Notes: generated by a model not told the origin, from the letters alone. A DNA stretch of 64,000 nt from an uncultured Weeksellaceae bacterium (GCA_964460845.1 CAYWRZ010000004.1:2920-66919); one strand, 5' to 3'. Shown: positions 19,604-28,216, numbered from the stretch's first letter. A program made the numbers and translations.

Positions 19604-21151
19604 ATGAAACCCAGTGATGATTTGTTTTGCCTTATAAAATCCCTTTCGCGTTCCGAAAAAGGGTATTTCCGGAAATATGCTTCTGTGCATGTCAAAGGAG
19701 AACAGAATACCTACCAGAAATTATTTGATGTGATCAGCAACCAGGAGCATTTTGACGAAGAGGAGATGAAACGGCAGTTAGGGCAAACGCCCCTGCTGAA
19801 TTACCTGCCTACTGCCAAACATCAGCTCTATAATCTCGTGCTGAAAACCCTGCGTGCGTATTACGAGGAAAATTCGATAGACTGTCAGGTGCGTGATTTT
19901 TTGCAGGATATCGAATTTCTTTATTCCAAAGCGCTTTTTCGACAGTGCCGTAAGCTTATTCAGAAAGTAAAAGCTATCTGCACCGAAAACGAGCGGCTGT
20001 TTGCCCTGCTGGAAGTGTGTCGTTGGGAAATAAGGGTTTGGATAGGTGAGCTGGAAAATTCCGAAGCCTCTTTTTCCAAGCTGGAAGACGTGGTGGCTCA
20101 CCAAAAAGAGATCCTGGCCAAGATCAGCTATCTCGTGGAGCTTGAAAACATTTTCAACAAAGCCTATTTGGTGCTGGGTGCTTCCGGTAAGCCGCGCAGC
20201 GTGTCTGAGCAGGCGCAGTTTTTGGAAATCCTCCAACACCCCCTGTTACAGGACGAGTCGCCGCTGCATTCGCTCGAAACACGTTTTAACTGGTACAACA
20301 TCAAAGGTGTCGAAGCGTATGTCAATTCTGACTGGAAAGCGGCGTTTACCTACATGACCAAAATTGTCCGGCTCTTTGAAGAAAATCCCAAAAGCATAAG
20401 CCGTTTTCCGGCCAAGTATTTTTCGGCGCTGGTAAATCGTTGTCAGATGGGCGTTTTTCTCGGGCGTAAAAAAGACGTCATGCAGGCATTGCATAAAATA
20501 AGACAGGCGCCCGTGCAGCATACCTGCTTCCGTTCGGAAAATTACCAGGTAAAAGTATTTCTCGCCCTGTACGGAATGGAGCTGCACTTCTATCAGCGCA
20601 CCGGCGAATTTGGGCGCATCATGTCGCTGGTCGATGAGGTGGAAATTATACTGCCCCGTTATGTGCACAAAGCGGGAGTGAGGCAATTGCTTAATTTTTA
20701 CCTGCGCTTATCTATCGTATGCTTTTGCGCCGGGCAATATAAAAAAGCGCTTCACTGGCTCAACAAAGTGCATAACGGGCGTTGTGAAGTATATCAGCAC
20801 CGCGAGTTTGTGGCGTTTGTAAACGTGTATAACCTGCTTGTACACTATGAGCTTCAAAACTTCGACCTGCTTATCTATACGCTGCGTGCTACCGAGAGGC
20901 GGCTTAAATCCAGAAAGCTCTTTTTCCGTTTTGAACAGGCGCTTATCGAATATTTTAAAACCACGCTCCGGAAAAACGGTTCCGATTTACGCAGCTCGGC
21001 CTTGAAACAGCTTGCGCATACGCTTAAAGAAATTAAAACGGATCCTTATGAGTCGAGACCGCTCGAATACTTCGATATCGCACTTTGGGCCGAAAGTAAA
21101 TACCGGGGCATACCGCTTCAAAAAATCATCTCGCAGGGTACTAAAACCTGA
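19604..21151 (+). CDS. Uncharacterised alpha-helical/TPR-like protein, paralog A
   Basis: MKPSDDLFCLIKSLSRSEKGYF... through FDIALWAESK; aligns end to end by eye with 26654-28216. ATG at 19604. Confidence 0.85.
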   Translation: MKPSDDLFCLIKSLSRSEKGYFRKYASVHVKGEQNTYQKLFDVISNQEHFDEEEMKRQLGQTPLLNYLPTAKHQLYNLVLKTLRAYYEENSIDCQVRDFLQDIEFLYSKALFRQCRKLIQKVKAICTENERLFALLEVCRWEIRVWIGELENSEASFSKLEDVVAHQKEILAKISYLVELENIFNKAYLVLGASGKPRSVSEQAQFLEILQHPLLQDESPLHSLETRFNWYNIKGVEAYVNSDWKAAFTYMTKIVRLFEENPKSISRFPAKYFSALVNRCQMGVFLGRKKDVMQALHKIRQAPVQHTCFRSENYQVKVFLALYGMELHFYQRTGEFGRIMSLVDEVEIILPRYVHKAGVRQLLNFYLRLSIVCFCAGQYKKALHWLNKVHNGRCEVYQHREFVAFVNVYNLLVHYELQNFDLLIYTLRATERRLKSRKLFFRFEQALIEYFKTTLRKNGSDLRSSALKQLAHTLKEIKTDPYESRPLEYFDIALWAESKYRGIPLQKIISQGTKT

Positions 21152-21393
21152 GTGCCGCGCGTGCTTTTCAGTCGCCTTTGTCAATAAAAATCCATCGCCG
21201 GCATCTTCCGCTACAGTAGAGAAGCATCGCAGAAAAACTGTAAAATTGCCACATGAGATAAGGGTTTAGACTATACTTTACCCGACTTTGCAGCGCAAAG
21301 TTTCCCGGTTTAGTATGCGGCACAGAATGCGAAAGGAAAGGCGTTTTATCTTAAAAAAATGGTAAATTAGCTCGTTACCAAACTCTCTGCTCC

Positions 21394-22173
21394 ATGTCGA
21401 AGCTCTCTGCAATTATTGTGGACGATGAAGAACTTGCACGCGAAAATTTGAGCATGCTCCTGCAAGAATATTGCCCCGAGATAGAGGTGATCGCACTTGC
21501 CGACGGAGTGGCTCAGGGCAGAAAAGTGATCCATACGCTCAAGCCCCGCATTGTATTTCTCGATATTCGTATGCCCTCCGGAGCCGAAGGCTTTGATTTG
21601 CTTGACTCGCTCCGCGAAGAGAAATTTTTGGTGGTGTTTGTAACCGCATTTAAAGACTATGCCGTACAGGCTTTTAACGCCAATGCCGTTCACTACCTGC
21701 TTAAACCGATTGATATAGAGGATCTAAAAGCAGCGGTACGTAAGCTCGTCGAAGCCGATCGCGTCTTTGAAGCACATCCCGAAAATTTTTCCAATTATGT
21801 AAGCACGCTCAAGCAATTGTCTGACAGCCTGCTTAATAACCGCTACTCAGGAAGGCTGAGCATCAGCTATTCCAAAGGCATCAAGATTATTCAGGACGAC
21901 AGTATCGCTTATGTAGAGGCCGATGGTAACTGCAGTCTGCTTCATTTCCGCGACGGTACACGCTACCTCGATACGCGTACGTTGGGCCTTTACGAAGAGA
22001 TTCTTAACCCCGCCAAATTTTTCCGGATCCATAAATCCTATCTTATCAATCTCAACGAGCTGGTAGAGTATGTGAGCGAAGACGGATATTTCGCCCTGCT
22101 GCGCGACGGCAAGCGCCTGCCTGTGGCACGTAACCGGGTAAGCGATTTCACCCAACGTATCAAAGCACTTTAA
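21394..22173 (+). CDS. LytTR-family response regulator 1
   Basis: IIVDDE, FLDIRMP, FVTAF, HYLLKP receiver; C-terminal YVEADGNC...FFRIHKSYLINL...LPVAR LytTR domain. Confidence 0.93.
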   Translation: MSKLSAIIVDDEELARENLSMLLQEYCPEIEVIALADGVAQGRKVIHTLKPRIVFLDIRMPSGAEGFDLLDSLREEKFLVVFVTAFKDYAVQAFNANAVHYLLKPIDIEDLKAAVRKLVEADRVFEAHPENFSNYVSTLKQLSDSLLNNRYSGRLSISYSKGIKIIQDDSIAYVEADGNCSLLHFRDGTRYLDTRTLGLYEEILNPAKFFRIHKSYLINLNELVEYVSEDGYFALLRDGKRLPVARNRVSDFTQRIKAL

Positions 22174-22278
22174 ACGGAAGTCTTTACCGTTTACTCAAAC
22201 ACATCTACACCTCACTCATTCGCATTCCGAAAACCACAGACTTCTTCTTAAATTAAGGTAAACTTAATACCTGTGGCT

Positions 22279-23004
22279 ATGAAGATTCGCTCTATTGTGG
22301 TTGATGACGAGTACTATTGCCGGAACAACCTGAAGATGATTATCGACGATTTTTGCCCCGATGTCGAAGTGGTGGGTATGGCTGATTCGGCCGAATCGGC
22401 CCGTGTACTGATTAGGCAATATCAGCCTGATTTGGTTTTTCTGGACATCAAAATGCCCCGTGAAGACGGATTCTCTCTGCTTGATTCTATTCCCCAGCGC
22501 GATTTTTCGGTAGTATTTACCACCGCGCACAGCGAATATGCGCTTAAAGCGTTTAAAGCCGACGCGGTCGATTACATCGAAAAGCCGATCAATATCGACG
22601 ATCTCCGCAATGCCATTAAAAAGGTAACCAAGTTTTACCAGCCGACCGAAAAACCCCTTCCGGCGACCAAAGAAAACGATCGCATTTCGCTGACCACGCG
22701 CGACGGTTTTCTGATGGTGAAAAACGAAGAGATCATTCACCTCGAAGCCAGCGATAATTACACCATGATTTACATGACCGATAACCGCAAGTTCCTCAGT
22801 TGTAAAAACATAAAGGTGTATGAAGAGTCGCTCAACAAATCCTCTTTTTTCCGGATTCACAAGTCGCATATCGTAAATATTGTAAATCACCTCAAAGGAT
22901 TTACCCGCACTGAAGGAAATATTGCTATTTTGAGTAACGGAAAGCAGGTGCCTGTGGCCCGGAGAAAGCTGACCGAATTTTTACAACGCATTAATACCAT
23001 TTGA
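22279..23004 (+). CDS. LytTR-family response regulator 2
   Basis: IVVDDE, FLDIKMP, FTTAH, DYIEKP; LEASDNYT...FFRIHKSHIVN...VPVAR. Confidence 0.93.
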   Translation: MKIRSIVVDDEYYCRNNLKMIIDDFCPDVEVVGMADSAESARVLIRQYQPDLVFLDIKMPREDGFSLLDSIPQRDFSVVFTTAHSEYALKAFKADAVDYIEKPINIDDLRNAIKKVTKFYQPTEKPLPATKENDRISLTTRDGFLMVKNEEIIHLEASDNYTMIYMTDNRKFLSCKNIKVYEESLNKSSFFRIHKSHIVNIVNHLKGFTRTEGNIAILSNGKQVPVARRKLTEFLQRINTI

Positions 23005-26000
23005 TGAACCTGATGTTACGCGTAAATAAAAGCCTGATTCTTTCAGGCTTTTTTTTCATACAGTCTTTTCTGCTGCAAGCTCAGCAATATACGTTCATCA
23101 ATTATTCGACCGAGCAGGGATTGGCACAATCGCAGGTTTCGGCCATGTGTCAGGATAAAAAAGGCTACCTCTGGTTTGCTACTTTCGGCGGAGTAAGCCG
23201 TTTCGACGGAATCAGCTTTACCAGCTACAGCAAAAGCGACGGACTGGTCGAGAATCAGGTCTATACCATCTTTGAAGATTCACAGCACCGGCTTTGGTTT
23301 GGCGCCATTGGCGGATATAGCCGTTTTGACGGGGAAACCTTCTATTCCGAAAAATTTCCAGCGCCCTACCTCAACCTGAATATTACCTCCATTTGTGAAG
23401 ATCGCGCCGGAAGAATATGGCTGGCTTTCGATGGAGCCGGACTGATTTGCCTTTTGCCCGACGGAACCCAACTTTTTTACGGGCTTGCGCAGGGACTCGA
23501 CCCTTACGTACGCAGCGTATTCAGCGATTCGAAAGGCAGGCTTTGGGCCGGCACACGCGGTGGACTTTTTCTCTTCGACAACGGCAGGTTTGCGCTTTTC
23601 CCCTTGAACGGCGACCCCGATCGCAACGTGAGCTTCATCACCGAAGATCAACGGCAACGTTTGTGGATAGCGACCTACGACGAAGGGGTTTTTATGGAGC
23701 TCGAAAAAGAAGGATTCCGGAATTATTATTCCGATCATGGCCTTATCAGCGATTGGGTTCGCACCATTTTTGTAGATGCCGATAACGCGATTTGGTTTGG
23801 CACCAAAACGGGAGTGAGTAAGCTCGATCACGGAGAGTTTCAGAATTTCGGTTATGCGCAGGGTCTTATCAATACCAATATTAAAGTAATCGGGCAGGAC
23901 TCTGAAGGAAATATGTGGCTGGGTACCGATGGAAAAGGAGTGCTCAAATTTGCCGGAGAGGCATTTACCACTTATACTTCGGTCGATGGTTTAAGCAGCG
24001 ATTTTGTGATGTCGGTTGCCGAAGACCTGTACGGAAATCTTTGGTTTGCAACCTATGGCGAGGGAATTTGCCGTTTTGACGGCAAACGCTTTACCGTGTT
24101 CAAAGACGATGCCGGATTGGCCAATAATACGGCCTGGACTTGTATAGCCGATAAGCAGAACCGTATATGGGTAGGTACTTCCAACGGCTTGTCGATGTAC
24201 GACGGCCGGCAGTTTTTTTCCTATTTCGAAGAAGACGGATTGCTGTCCAATAAAATTACTTCCCTTTTTTCCGATACCGATGGATCGTTGTGGATTGGGA
24301 ATAAAGACGGACTATCGCACCTGAAAAACAACAAGTTTATCAATTATACCGCTACCGACGGACTCACCGGTGGCAATGTGCGAAGCATTCATAAAGATCG
24401 GAAGGGCGTGCTTTGGCTCGGCACCTCCGACGGATTATACAGCTTCGACGGCAGCCGTTTTGTCAACTACAAGCACGAGTCGCATGCCAACGATAATACG
24501 GTGTATTCTATCGCCGAAGACCGTTACGGCAATCTTTGGATAGGTTCCAAAAGCGGACTTTTTTGTTTTCGTAACCAGCTTTTTTATAAGCTTTCTTTAG
24601 GACAGGGCATCACGGCCAACACAGTGAATTTTCTCATTTTTGAAAACGATCGCTTGTGGGTAGGCACCAACAACAGTCTTTATGAGGTAAATGTGATGCA
24701 CTACCTCGAAAAAGGGGAGGTCGAATACCGTAACTATTCCAAGCTCGAAGGGGTACCCGGACTGGAGAGCAACATGAACGCGGCCTTTCGGGATACAAAG
24801 GGCAACTTGTGGTTTGGTACCGACGGCGGACTTGTACGTTTTAATCCGCAGAAGCGCCGCCATGCTTTTAATCCCGTAGAGCCTTACGTACACATTACCG
24901 ATATACGCCTGTTTTTTGAACCGGTGAAATGGGATCAGTACGCCAAAGAGAAGGATCCTGCCACAGGTCTTGCGCGCGATTTGGTGGTGCCGTATAAAAA
25001 AAATCACTTCACTTTTTATTATACCGGCATCTGTCATACCAATCCCAACAAAGTAAAATACCGTTTCAAGCTCGAAGGCTTTGACCAGGACTGGTCGCCC
25101 GAAACCGATGCACGTTTTGCCACCTATTCCAACCTGCCCAGCGGTCATTATACCTTTAAAGTGATGGCCTGTAACAACTCCGGAATATGGACTTCCGTAC
25201 CGGCCGAATTCAGCTTTTCCATTACGCCGCCTTTTTGGTTTACCTGGTGGTTTTACATCTTGTGCGCCGCCTTTGCATTTACCCTCGGCTACCTGATCTC
25301 GCGTTGGAGAATGGCGGTTATCAGGCGTAAAAACGAGCGTACGCAGCTTATTTATCAGTCTAAACTACTCAGCCTGGAGCAGCAAACGCTGAACGCGAGC
25401 ATGAACCGGCATTTTATTTTTAATGCGCTCAATTCTATTCAATACTATATCAACAAGCAGGATAAGCTGGAGGCCAACCGCTACCTGACCAGTTTTGCGA
25501 AGCTGATCCGTAAAAACCTCGACAGTTCGGTGTCGGGTAATTTGGTGAATCTTTCGGAAGAAATGGAAAGGCTGGAACTCTATCTCTCGCTCGAAAATAT
25601 GCGGTTTAAGAGCAAATTTTCTTATGCCATAGAGGTGGACGAGGAAATTGATACCGAATCGGTGAAGATTCCTCCTATGCTTTTGCAGCCCTATGTCGAA
25701 AACAGTATTTGGCATGGAATATTACCCATGGAACGTCCGGGGCATATCCGGATAAAGGTCGAGCCTTTTGAGCAGGATGCAGTTAGGATTACCATTACCG
25801 ACGACGGTATAGGAATAGATACGAGCCTGAAAAACAAGTCAAAAAATGGGGTTCAGCACGTTTCAAGGGGTATTGAGATTACAAGTGGAAGACTGGCGAT
25901 TCTCAAAAAAATGACCAATGAAAACCTCATTATCACAGGGCCTTACGAGATGCGCAGCGAAAACGGCGAAGTGAAAGGCACCGAAGTAGTGCTGGTGATT

Positions 26001-26054
26001 CCGCAGACCGAGTTTTTCAGAAAGGCAAATTTTTCCGAAAAAAACTATGAATAA
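23004..26054 (+). CDS. LytS-type sensor histidine kinase with periplasmic beta-propeller (Reg_prop) repeats and Y_Y_Y domain
   Basis: Signal peptide, many D..G.LW.GT..G repeats, YRFKLEGFD...YSNLPSGHYTFKV, TM helix, MNRHFIFNALN H-box, IPPMLLQPYVENSIWHG, DDGIG, RGIEIT. Confidence 0.93.
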   Translation: MNLMLRVNKSLILSGFFFIQSFLLQAQQYTFINYSTEQGLAQSQVSAMCQDKKGYLWFATFGGVSRFDGISFTSYSKSDGLVENQVYTIFEDSQHRLWFGAIGGYSRFDGETFYSEKFPAPYLNLNITSICEDRAGRIWLAFDGAGLICLLPDGTQLFYGLAQGLDPYVRSVFSDSKGRLWAGTRGGLFLFDNGRFALFPLNGDPDRNVSFITEDQRQRLWIATYDEGVFMELEKEGFRNYYSDHGLISDWVRTIFVDADNAIWFGTKTGVSKLDHGEFQNFGYAQGLINTNIKVIGQDSEGNMWLGTDGKGVLKFAGEAFTTYTSVDGLSSDFVMSVAEDLYGNLWFATYGEGICRFDGKRFTVFKDDAGLANNTAWTCIADKQNRIWVGTSNGLSMYDGRQFFSYFEEDGLLSNKITSLFSDTDGSLWIGNKDGLSHLKNNKFINYTATDGLTGGNVRSIHKDRKGVLWLGTSDGLYSFDGSRFVNYKHESHANDNTVYSIAEDRYGNLWIGSKSGLFCFRNQLFYKLSLGQGITANTVNFLIFENDRLWVGTNNSLYEVNVMHYLEKGEVEYRNYSKLEGVPGLESNMNAAFRDTKGNLWFGTDGGLVRFNPQKRRHAFNPVEPYVHITDIRLFFEPVKWDQYAKEKDPATGLARDLVVPYKKNHFTFYYTGICHTNPNKVKYRFKLEGFDQDWSPETDARFATYSNLPSGHYTFKVMACNNSGIWTSVPAEFSFSITPPFWFTWWFYILCAAFAFTLGYLISRWRMAVIRRKNERTQLIYQSKLLSLEQQTLNASMNRHFIFNALNSIQYYINKQDKLEANRYLTSFAKLIRKNLDSSVSGNLVNLSEEMERLELYLSLENMRFKSKFSYAIEVDEEIDTESVKIPPMLLQPYVENSIWHGILPMERPGHIRIKVEPFEQDAVRITITDDGIGIDTSLKNKSKNGVQHVSRGIEITSGRLAILKKMTNENLIITGPYEMRSENGEVKGTEVVLVIPQTEFFRKANFSEKNYE

Positions 26055-26067
26055 AGAAACTTTTTCC

Positions 26068-26075
26068 TAAATTTG
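26068..26075 (+). promoter_or_regulatory. sigmaA -7 element for the small lipoprotein gene
   Basis: TAAATTTG between the kinase stop codon and the ATG at 26133. Confidence 0.6.
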
Positions 26076-26132
26076 AAGTACTATTGGGTGTGGAATGGCG
26101 TTTTGAAAGCTGAACCAAGAGAGGAAGAAGTT

Positions 26133-26387
26133 ATGAAAAAGAGTTTGTATAGTCTTGTGCTTGTTTCGTCGCTCGTTTTTTTGGGTGCGTGCAGTAAAGA
26201 ATATATGGGTCCTTTGGATGAGACAGGGTCGCCTGTTCACACCAAAGCTGCATCTACAGACGGTCCTACTATAACGACCGGTGGTGACAGTGGTGGCATC
26301 ACAGACGGCGGTCACGACTCCGATTACGATACTACCAATAAGAATAAGAGAAAGCAACAGTCTCCCGGAACCCCTCCTGGAAACTGA
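26133..26387 (+). CDS. Small (84 aa) low-complexity lipoprotein
   Basis: MKKSLYSLVLVSSLVFLGA-C lipoprotein signal; mature part rich in G/T/D with a KNKRK tail; own promoter element and terminator. Confidence 0.85.
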   Translation: MKKSLYSLVLVSSLVFLGACSKEYMGPLDETGSPVHTKAASTDGPTITTGGDSGGITDGGHDSDYDTTNKNKRKQQSPGTPPGN

Positions 26388-26414
26388 ACAATAACCCCGC
26401 TTTACGGGGATAGG

Positions 26415-26448
26415 TCCCTCCGGTAAACCCGGAGGGATTTTTATTTTA
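26415..26448 (+). terminator. Intrinsic terminator after the small lipoprotein
   Basis: Stem TCCCTCCGG-taaac-CCGGAGGGA followed by TTTTTATTTT. Confidence 0.85.
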
Positions 26449-26653
26449 TACCAGTCTAAGCCCGCTTTTTACTTCCTCCCAAACCGGCGTTGCACTTGAT
26501 CCTTATCGCCCCGTTTTGTAAATTTAAAAGAGAAGGAAAAGCCTTTTTTTCGCCCGTATTCGCGCTTCGTCCCCTTATGTGCACGCTGCGAGATATAGGA
26601 ATCGGTCGCGGAAAAACGATTTTTTAACCGGTCAAAAAATTAAATAATTATAC

Positions 26654-28216
26654 ATGTCTAACGTGGCTTCCGATCAGTTGTTCCGTTTAATTCGATCGCT
26701 TAGCAAGCCTGAAAAACGCTATTTCAAGCTGTACAGCTCCAGGCATATTCTCGGAGAAGTCAATAACTACCAGTTGCTTTTCGATGCCATCGATAAGATG
26801 AAAGAATATGACGAGTCTCGCCTGCATAAGAAGTTTGCCGGACAGGCTTTTCTCCGTCAGCTTTCTATCGCCAAACGCCGGCTTTATGATCATATTCTGT
26901 ATAGCCTCGATGCGTACCATGCGCACGGCTCGATCGATTCGGAGCTGCGAAGACTGGTAAATTGTGCCCTTATTCTGTACAAAAGATCCTTGTACAGCCA
27001 GGCCGCCAAGCTGCTCAAAAGTGCGCGTAAGCTGGCCGAACGCTACGACAAGCATACCATTTTGCTCGACATTTCACTGCTCGAAAAAAAGCTGATCGAA
27101 ACCGGCAATTATACCCGTATCGACGAAGAAGATTTGCTCCAAATTCAGGAACGCGATCGGCTTACGCTCGAAAAAATTTCTAACCTCAACGAGTTTTGGC
27201 ACATCAAAAGCCGCATGTTTTATATCCTCAATCGCCGTGGAAAAGCGCGTAATCAGGAAGAGCTCAGCAATTTCAAAGCGATTATCGACAATGTGCTGCT
27301 GCGCAGCGAAGACAAAGCGCTTTATCCCAAAACTAAATACCTCTACCATCACATTTACAGCGCGTATTATTTTGGTACCGGCGATTACAGCGCCAGCTTT
27401 CAGCACCTCAAAAAAAACGTAGCGCTGGTCGAAAGTGAAGTGGCGGCTTTTAAGGAAGAACCCAACGTATATTTTTCGTTGCTGACCAACATTATCTACA
27501 TCGCCAGCCGCTTACGCCGTTATCCGGAAGTGTTTTTTTACCTTGAGAAATTACGTGCCCTGCCCGAAAAGCTGAGCCTGCAACGCAATGAAGATCTCGA
27601 TATCAAACTTTTCTCCAGCACTTATAGTCTCGAACTTACCCTTTACGCGTTTACCGGCGATTTTGAAAAAGGCATTGCACTGGTGCCTTTTATCCGCGAA
27701 GGACTTGCGCTTTACGGCGAAAAAATAAATACCCTGCGCCGGGCGTATCTTTATTTTAGCATAGCAATTCTCTACCTCGGCGAAAAACACTATTCGGAAG
27801 CCCTGAATTGGATCAACCTGCTGCTTGCTACGCAAGGACTCGATAAAACGGAAGATATCTATTGTTTTGCCCAGCTCGTAAACCTGATTATTCACCTCGA
27901 ATTGGGCAGCCAGCGCCTTTTGCCTTACACGCTCAAATCTACACAGCGTTATCTTTCTTCCCGCAATCGTGTATATAAGTTCGAGTCGGCGATGCTCAAC
28001 TTTGTCAATAAAATTATCCGCACCCGCGACCGCCGCGAAGAGCAGAAAGTATATGCGCTGTTGTTGGAAGAGTTACGTCCGCTCGAACAAGAAACGTTCG
28101 AGAAATCAGCGTTCGAGCATTTCGATTTTGTGGCCTGGGCCGAGAGTAAAGTTACCGGAAAGCCGTTTCGCGACATTATCCGTGAGCGGGCTTCGGCAGC
28201 AGAAGGCCGAGCTTAA
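26654..28216 (+). CDS. Uncharacterised alpha-helical/TPR-like protein, paralog B
   Basis: ASDQLFRLIRSLSKPEKRYF... through FDFVAWAESK; paralog of 19604-21151. Confidence 0.88.
   Translation: MSNVASDQLFRLIRSLSKPEKRYFKLYSSRHILGEVNNYQLLFDAIDKMKEYDESRLHKKFAGQAFLRQLSIAKRRLYDHILYSLDAYHAHGSIDSELRRLVNCALILYKRSLYSQAAKLLKSARKLAERYDKHTILLDISLLEKKLIETGNYTRIDEEDLLQIQERDRLTLEKISNLNEFWHIKSRMFYILNRRGKARNQEELSNFKAIIDNVLLRSEDKALYPKTKYLYHHIYSAYYFGTGDYSASFQHLKKNVALVESEVAAFKEEPNVYFSLLTNIIYIASRLRRYPEVFFYLEKLRALPEKLSLQRNEDLDIKLFSSTYSLELTLYAFTGDFEKGIALVPFIREGLALYGEKINTLRRAYLYFSIAILYLGEKHYSEALNWINLLLATQGLDKTEDIYCFAQLVNLIIHLELGSQRLLPYTLKSTQRYLSSRNRVYKFESAMLNFVNKIIRTRDRREEQKVYALLLEELRPLEQETFEKSAFEHFDFVAWAESKVTGKPFRDIIRERASAAEGRA

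Follow-up and report, generated by a model that had tools for sequence, protein, structure and literature searches.

Between a sensor kinase gene and the gene for a 520-aa protein, the 64,000-nucleotide stretch of DNA from an uncultured Weeksellaceae bacterium that we analyzed (hereafter the window) contains an ORF encoding only 84 aa. The locus raises the question of whether this ORF is a gene and, if so, whether its product is a signal released from the cell or a component of the adjacent kinase system. The original prediction, made from the sequence, described a disordered lipoprotein resembling a precursor peptide, which could be a surface-anchored or proteolytically released signal or a feedback inhibitor of the kinase.

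The ORF starts with an ATG at position 26133, ends with a TGA at positions 26385–26387 and encodes a product of 84 aa; its features and those of the surrounding genes are listed in Table 1. Residues 1–20 (MKKSLYSLVLVSSLVFLGAC) contain the lipobox LGA followed by Cys20, the codon of which lies at positions 26190–26192, and display the charged n-region, h-region and lipobox of an SPII signal (MKK-SLYSLVLVSSLVF-LGA-C20). On the basis of this predicted signal, the 84-aa protein is a lipoprotein. Cys20 is followed by S-K-E-Y (C-X-K-E), the core GGDSGGITDGGHDSDYD occupies residues 50–66, the C-terminal tail QQSPGTPPGN follows KNKRK, and the mature part contains no Cys, Trp or Phe; these features were located as originally described. 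The expectation that the mature part is unlikely to fold was likewise borne out by AlphaFold2 (AF2; 34-sequence alignment), which modeled a helix at residues 3–18 only and the remainder as coil (pTM 0.24). SPII cleavage and lipidation of Cys20 would leave a mature chain of approximately 64 residues, which would be acidic and intrinsically disordered.

Table 1. Features of the lipoprotein gene and of its neighborhood in the window
Feature	Position	Strand	Basis
RusR-like paralog, 29% identical to the product of 26654–28216; upstream of the regulators	19604–21151		NF058569, below curated cutoff
Two tandem LytTR response regulators	21394–22173, 22273–23004	+	Pfam Response_reg and LytTR in both
Sensor kinase, 1017 aa	23001–26054	+	Pfam and AF2 model
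Bipartite element GAAACTTTTT-cc-TAAATTTG-a-AGTACT (AAC-N16-GTA)	26056–26082	+	Enriched upstream of orthologs
Promoter element TAAATTTG (TAnnTTTG)	26068–26075	+	Exact match, 65 nt 5' of the ATG
Lipoprotein CDS (P0001), 84 aa, stop included	26133–26387	+	ORF, homologs, dN/dS, public gene calls
Predicted type II (lipoprotein) signal peptide, lipobox L-G-A-C	26133–26192	+	Sequence; family conservation
Variable low-complexity tether, residues 21–55, G/S/T/D/P-rich	26193–26297	+	Length kept, sequence free, predicted coil
Short linear motif I56-T-D-G-G-H-D-S-D-Y-D66	26298–26330	+	I56, T57 and D58 (near-)invariant; family profile
Basic cluster K70-N-K-R-K74	26340–26354	+	C-terminal end in most orthologs
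Intrinsic terminator, two consecutive hairpins and T-run	26395–26450	+	Folding
RusR (BT2802)-family helical protein, 520 aa	26654–28216	+	NCBIfam NF058569, below curated cutoff

A short ORF of low complexity could be spurious, or a non-coding spacer that separates the kinase gene from the one that follows, and a word-indexed protein search matched only the window's own protein. The latter result is explained by the query, which is short and of low complexity. A six-frame search identified homologs in each of the 11 further genomes of the family, as well as in other families of the order. When a family profile built from 34 members was compared with clusters (50%-identity representatives), 729 clusters matched at E ≤ 1e-3 and 129 at E ≤ 1e-10, nearly all of them 68–120 aa in length and aligned over the full length. 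Hundreds of clusters share the conserved signal peptide, lipobox and motif, dN/dS values between close pairs ranged from 0.10 to 0.36, well below 1, and orthologs were called independently in public assemblies, where they are annotated as 'hypothetical proteins' of 72–119 aa. Approximately 190 relatives have the lipobox, ITD motif and basic tail as well; because the features of the window copy are conserved among relatives, they exceed chance. Family conservation and dN/dS refute the view that the ORF is spurious, to which we assign practically no probability, and these comparisons indicate that the ORF is a genuine gene under purifying selection.

The gene is single-copy in the window genome. 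One marine variant was recorded in 204 blocks of the sequence collection, and the relatives that carried names were Flavobacteriales MAGs (related-locus search, three loci returned). The lipoprotein family had no annotation in Pfam, NCBIfam or the ESM Atlas. In a phylum-wide profile search at 1e-5, nothing beyond the signal peptide was matched outside Flavobacteriales, and the diverged members in other orders could be reached only via homologs of the kinase. A second match in one genome (G009, locus L018) was rejected; its signal peptide alone aligned, and the motif was absent. As judged from these searches, the family is undescribed and widespread in Flavobacteriales, with diverged members in other orders of Bacteroidia.

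We counted the anatomical features of the family in 149 library representatives and 45 locus-derived relatives, and determined the spacing of motif and tether in 184 relatives. A lipobox was found in 145 of the 149 representatives, with a Lys two residues past the lipobox Cys (X-K) in 144 of these 145, usually followed by Glu or Asp; a Pro approximately seven residues after the Cys is also a family feature. The tether is rich in G, S, T, D, N and E family-wide and varies freely in sequence but not in length; from the Cys to the first motif, the median is 42 aa (IQR 38–47, 184 relatives). The motif was present in every library representative (149/149) and every locus-derived relative (45/45). 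Its consensus is G-I-T-D-P/G-x-x-D-x-D-x-D, or in a finer form G-I-T-D-P-[ND]-x-D-[EP]-D-x-D, in which I, T and D are near-invariant, the next position is P in 77% and G or T in the window's clade, and Asp occupies motif positions +2, +6, +8 and +10. The original prediction had proposed as a check that the ITD...D.D core be conserved while its flanks vary, and the family passes this check.

A single motif copy is present in 144 of the 184 relatives, two copies in 36 and three in four, and four copies are found in a member from another Bacteroidia order (L105). The latter is encoded by a gene for a 180-aa lipoprotein behind an orthologous kinase (L105:4521–5063) and contains four near-identical tandem S/P-ITDKDGDDGDGDGDSG repeats, so the motif unit can be amplified. 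A second tether motif, (V/A)P.W(K/R)S, is present approximately 20 residues before the ITDP motif in clade f10 (L039, L045, L067 and L078; P0005, P0007 and P0012). In roughly 70% of members, a Lys/Arg C-terminus lies approximately 18 residues after the motif; among the 12 residues at the C-terminal end, 32/45 locus-derived and 103/149 library relatives have at least three Lys/Arg. Most orthologs stop at the basic cluster, and the QQSPGTPPGN extension is peculiar to the window copy. The median pI of the mature part is 4.3.

The beginning of the mature chain can be compared with the LES of Bacteroidota surface lipoproteins, the optimum of which is C-X-K-(D/E)2-X (Lauber et al. 2016, PMC5080379). 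A single acidic residue after the LES Lys was insufficient for export, and loss of the second abolished it (PMC5080379). The family resembles this signal in having a Lys at the same position after the lipidated Cys, usually with an acidic residue next to it. However, the window copy reads K-E-Y, with one acidic residue, and falls short of the LES; most relatives likewise lack the second acidic residue, and a full K-(D/E)2 LES was found in 36 of 145 relatives.

The kinase encoded upstream comprises a signal/TM segment, a periplasmic double beta-propeller with Y_Y_Y, a TM segment, a LytS-type His_kinase and HATPase_c (Pfam E-values: Reg_prop 2e-64, Y_Y_Y 4e-20 and His_kinase 7e-18). Its AF2 model matched the periplasmic sensor of BT4663 (4A2L/4A2M) with an E-value of 1e-50 and a TM of 0.82. 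No extracytoplasmic domain other than this sensor is encoded in the conserved neighborhood. Orthologs of the LytTR regulators (RR1 and/or RR2) were located 5' of the kinase in most family loci. The kinase ORF of the window begins with TTG-ATG (23001–23006), with the TTG at 23001 or the ATG at 23004 as its start, and overlaps the stop of the second regulator (22273–23004); this overlap suggests translational coupling.

We compared the genomic context of 49 distinct family loci, which were picked by their match to the lipoprotein. A propeller kinase was located immediately upstream of the lipoprotein gene in 41 of the 49 loci, spanning nine families, with gaps of approximately 40–110 nt. The remaining loci were five f7 loci without an adjacent kinase, two stand-alone second copies and one at a contig end. 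In the five f7 loci, the lipoprotein gene stays beside a RusR-like gene and the kinase ortholog is located elsewhere in those genomes. Given this split and the two stand-alone copies, adjacency of kinase and lipoprotein is not obligatory.

The pair of lipoprotein and RusR-like genes in f7 (L016 and L099–L101) lies between gcvH and sufA/sufB, with dxs nearby. This chromosomal setting (dxs...sufAB) matches that of the window, except that the f7 locus appears to have lost its kinase and regulator genes or to have had them moved elsewhere; the f7 kinase ortholog (L060) has no adjacent LytTR gene. At another locus (L097:9583–13638), the module is located beside a bacteriophytochrome (PAS_2-GAF-PHY-HisKA), a heme oxygenase and single-domain response regulators, a setting that probably has nothing to do with the lipoprotein.

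A tree of 51 kinases was computed, comprising 36 lipoprotein-linked kinases, the f7 kinase and 14 kinases without the lipoprotein gene. The 36 linked kinases and the f7 kinase formed a single clade (SH-like support 98), and the 14 unlinked kinases fell outside it. The linkage label changed twice on this tree, compared with a mean of 13.2 changes for shuffled labels; since relatives share linkage labels, these values demonstrate clustering and not independent events. Two of the 14 unlinked paralogs belong to the window genome, and inspection of these two (on contigs C5 and C9) revealed nothing comparable downstream. The closest kinase homologs in other Bacteroidia orders (37–49% identity) each had a small acidic lipoprotein gene directly downstream, the products of which bear ITD, VTD or ISD motifs, one of them with four ITDKDGDDGDGDGD repeats; one of these genes precedes a homolog of the 520-aa protein. 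More distant kinases displayed the kinase–regulator gene order and no such lipoprotein gene. These comparisons of sequence and gene order indicate that the lipoprotein is genetically tied to one kinase orthogroup, and the originally proposed link to the kinase is strongly supported by both the synteny and the kinase tree.

The gene was also predicted to have its own TAAATTTG element and a strong terminator, and both were found to be conserved. The octamer TAnnTTTG, which we take to be the '-7' type promoter element of Bacteroidota sigma-A, was located 20–110 nt 5' of the start, in most cases at –24 to –45, in 35 of 45 unique orthologous loci; within the window, the TAAATTTG octamer itself occurs four times compared with five expected, in other words not more rarely than by chance. 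Downstream, hairpins at 26395–26409 and 26412–26440 (the latter with a 12-bp stem and a T-run next to it) have a combined folding energy of –28.3 kcal/mol, and a terminator-like hairpin with a T-run directly follows the gene in 43 of the 45 orthologous loci. With its conserved promoter box and terminator, the lipoprotein gene is therefore a conserved monocistronic unit behind the kinase.

The bipartite element at this promoter is possibly a site for a regulator of the LytTR type. Upstream of the lipoprotein gene, AAC-N16-18-GTA was found in 24 of the 45 loci, compared with a mean of 4.7 and a maximum of 11 in shuffles, and a looser regex yielded 79 matches in 1.08 Mb, 13–15 of which were within 140 nt 5' of the lipoprotein gene. 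In the window's family, the element lies across the -7 box, and in another family it is located approximately 55 nt upstream of that box. In one family, the half-sites are imperfect direct repeats (GTAAC/GTAAT) that are approximately 22 bp apart and abut the –33 region, an arrangement that resembles LytTR sites. AAC-N16-GTA was not found at the window's regulator or RusR-like promoters, nor 5' of RR1 in 24 other loci. Since the element was not found at the other promoters of the locus, we regard LytTR control of the lipoprotein promoter only as a lead. A perfect inverted repeat (ACTTTGC-agc-GCAAAGT, 21285–21305) lies approximately 90–110 nt 5' of the first LytTR regulator gene and has an AACTTT core in common with the lipoprotein-promoter element; this repeat was not conserved 5' of RR1 in the 24 other loci.

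The original prediction placed the ORF between a sensor kinase and a TPR-like protein. The kinase was confirmed, at 23001–26054, but 'TPR-like' is too narrow a description of the other neighbor (26654–28216), which matches the BT2802/RusR family over its full length, below the cutoff. The NF058569 'BT2802 family' profile matched the two RusR-like proteins of the window at 4e-67 and 5e-48, over the whole profile length and below the curated cutoff in both cases, while Pfam yielded one weak TPR for the pair and nothing for the 520-aa protein. The two paralogs bracket the regulator–regulator–kinase–lipoprotein block, and a RusR-like gene is located directly downstream of the lipoprotein gene in 24 of the 49 loci. 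BT2802 itself, named RusR, is a candidate activator of the ribose PUL that would act in the cytoplasm (bioRxiv 10.1101/574913), and by its similarity the 520-aa protein is a candidate cytoplasmic transcription activator. The RusR-like proteins have no signal peptide and therefore cannot meet the lipoprotein directly. RusR-like proteins paired with a two-component system outside ribose PULs appear to be undescribed.

Given the kinase synteny (41/49 loci) and the kinase tree, a role as ligand, modulator or feedback factor stays the best reading of the lipoprotein. With moderate confidence, we propose that it is a dedicated envelope-tethered accessory or feedback partner of the LytTR two-component system, in which the motif serves as the interaction element; it is probably not the precursor of a secreted peptide but an undescribed partner or target of the kinase system. 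The combination of a disordered tether, conserved in length, and a single conserved linear motif points to the architecture of a tethered interaction element, and the most economical partner for the motif would be the kinase sensor, directly or via a bound cation. The tether would let the motif reach the periplasmic sensor of the kinase, or a cation or ligand read by that sensor, and contact of the motif would modulate the kinase output, such that the lipoprotein would act as a co-sensor, a pseudo-ligand or a feedback modulator. The lipoprotein promoter would probably be under the LytTR regulators of the system, closing a feedback loop. Within this scheme, we infer that the protein resides in the envelope and touches the kinase, in which direction it acts, and that the regulators control its promoter. 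In an AF2 model of a kinase–lipoprotein fusion, the lipoprotein part had pLDDT values of 27–36 and did not dock; this model is crude, with no alignment depth for that part.

Several observations weigh against an accessory partner. The C-X-K-(D/E) start is LES-like, and a surface-exposed lipoprotein could not touch the periplasmic sensor directly. Moreover, the adjacency to the kinase is lost in f7 and two copies stand alone, and a search of the other promoters at the locus did not recover the candidate regulator site. A more specific form of the accessory reading, which we consider quite unlikely, is that the kinase reads its own tethered lipoprotein and not a free glycan. The ITD motif would serve as a built-in pseudo-ligand in the sensor and would give up this place upon displacement by anionic polymers, Ca2+ loading or cleavage by foreign proteases, and the LytTR regulators would drive the lipoprotein promoter. 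If true, this would represent a self-contained autoregulatory circuit with a tethered ligand, kept across Bacteroidia and without a described counterpart among two-component systems.

The adjacency fits equally well with a lipoprotein that is a mere output of the system. For example, the protein could be a cation-binding or charge-bearing polyanion of the envelope, the Asp motif of which, reminiscent in some members of DxDxDG, EF-hand or thrombospondin-type-3 calcium loops, binds Ca2+ or other divalent cations at the membrane surface and the Lys/Arg tail anionic lipids, and which is only an output or neighbor of the kinase system. The low median pI (4.3) and the four Asp residues of the motif (+2, +6, +8 and +10) agree with such a function, as do canonical-looking loops in some relatives (DVDGDGITD, DTNGDGVIDEQD and NNDEDGN, and the four ITDKDGDDGDGDGD repeats in L105) and the tandem repetition of the motif in 40 of 184 relatives, a pattern often seen where repeats bind ions; display at the surface would fit with the LES-like C-X-K-(D/E) start. 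However, a comparison of 34 members with the Pfam EF-hand and TSP_3 models yielded no match except for one EF-hand_5 at an E-value of 0.24. The window copy (D62-S-D64-Y-D66-T) lacks the Gly of DxDxDG, the family as a whole shows no D-x-D-x-D periodicity upstream of ITD, and a generic surface polyanion is not expected to track a single kinase orthogroup so tightly. We therefore regard a role as such a polyanion as fairly unlikely.

LytTR regulators are classically coupled to peptide pheromones, and the lipoprotein could accordingly be the precursor of a released signal, a cleaved ITD fragment acting as an autoinducer sensed by the kinase in a Gram-negative counterpart of LytTR quorum sensing. 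The presence of two tandem LytTR regulators, as in plnABCD-type loci, the conservation of the motif amid variable flanks and the strong promoter and terminator of the gene would suit this possibility, and the repeats could yield several copies of the peptide. The export route does not: the protein has a lipobox instead of a double-glycine or AgrD-type leader, and no ABC/C39 exporter, AgrB-like enzyme or other protease was found in approximately 50 neighborhoods. RiPP-type modifying enzymes (radical SAM, LanM, YcaO and others) were also not found in the conserved neighborhoods, where the conserved neighbors are the LytTR regulators, the kinase and the RusR-like protein and, beyond these, housekeeping genes (thiL-like, sufA/B and dxs). 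With an SPII signal that is not a leader and with no exporter, peptidase or modifying enzyme in these neighborhoods, the label of 'precursor peptide' in the original prediction is not upheld. The same applies to its proposal of the basic cluster as a cleavage site: the cluster is the protein end in most orthologs, not an internal site, and the Pro/Gly tail occurs only in the window copy, which argues against processing. In addition, the kinase has a propeller of the sugar-sensor type and is not an HPK10 polytopic receptor. A released peptide signal is therefore, in our estimation, very unlikely.

The accessory or feedback partner thus remains the reading that we favor. To our knowledge, Bacteroidota have a very large number of LytTR-coupled kinases with periplasmic propeller sensors, and the signal is known for almost none of them. 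The present results show that one ancient kinase orthogroup travels with a conserved, unannotated micro-lipoprotein, the only constrained features of which are the anchor, the tether length, the 12-residue acidic motif and the basic tail. This protein provides a concrete handle on the control of propeller sensors, and its family adds several hundred clusters to the poorly charted small proteins of bacteria.

Among known systems, the AgrD/AgrC/AgrA, ComC/ComD/ComE and PlnA/PlnB/PlnC/PlnD modules of Firmicutes are similar in that a small gene with a short conserved core is located beside a kinase and a LytTR regulator. In contrast to these pheromone modules, the present locus has a lipoprotein signal and lacks an exporter or protease of its own, and its kinase senses through a large propeller in the periplasm instead of being a polytopic receptor. 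The partner kinase has the same double-propeller and Y_Y_Y fold as the BT4663-type sensors (4A2L/4A2M, 3V9F). The disaccharides bound by BT4663 are heparin-derived and anionic, a property that they share with the polyanionic lipoprotein motif; however, BT4663 is a hybrid, whereas the kinase described here has a LytS-type His_kinase and separate LytTR regulators. Our literature search found no described partner lipoprotein for BT4663-type or propeller kinases, and if the motif engages the sensor, the lipoprotein would be the first accessory partner described for this sensor fold.

Closer functional parallels are provided by proteins of the envelope that work with a sensor. QseG (qseEGF operon), NlpE (CpxA) and RcsF (Rcs phosphorelay) are folded envelope lipoproteins that work with two-component sensors. 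As in these cases, a small envelope lipoprotein is coupled to a sensor, and the qseG gene is located inside an operon beside its kinase gene, as here. However, there is no kinship in sequence or fold: the present protein is predicted to be a disordered tether with a linear motif, and the kinase encoded next to it combines a BT4663-type propeller sensor with LytTR outputs. With respect to the functional class of accessory lipoproteins, genetic coupling to one sensor kinase was found (41/49 loci, with paralogs lacking the gene). MgrB (PhoQ), SafA and MzrA are very small envelope proteins that act on the periplasmic domain of a kinase and are expressed under the same system. The separate promoter with its candidate regulator site recalls this arrangement, in which MgrB exerts negative feedback, but MgrB, SafA and MzrA are transmembrane peptides, not lipoproteins, and their genes are not adjacent to the kinase genes. 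By analogy, the gene would work most like those for QseG, NlpE, RcsF and MgrB, while being homologous to none of them.
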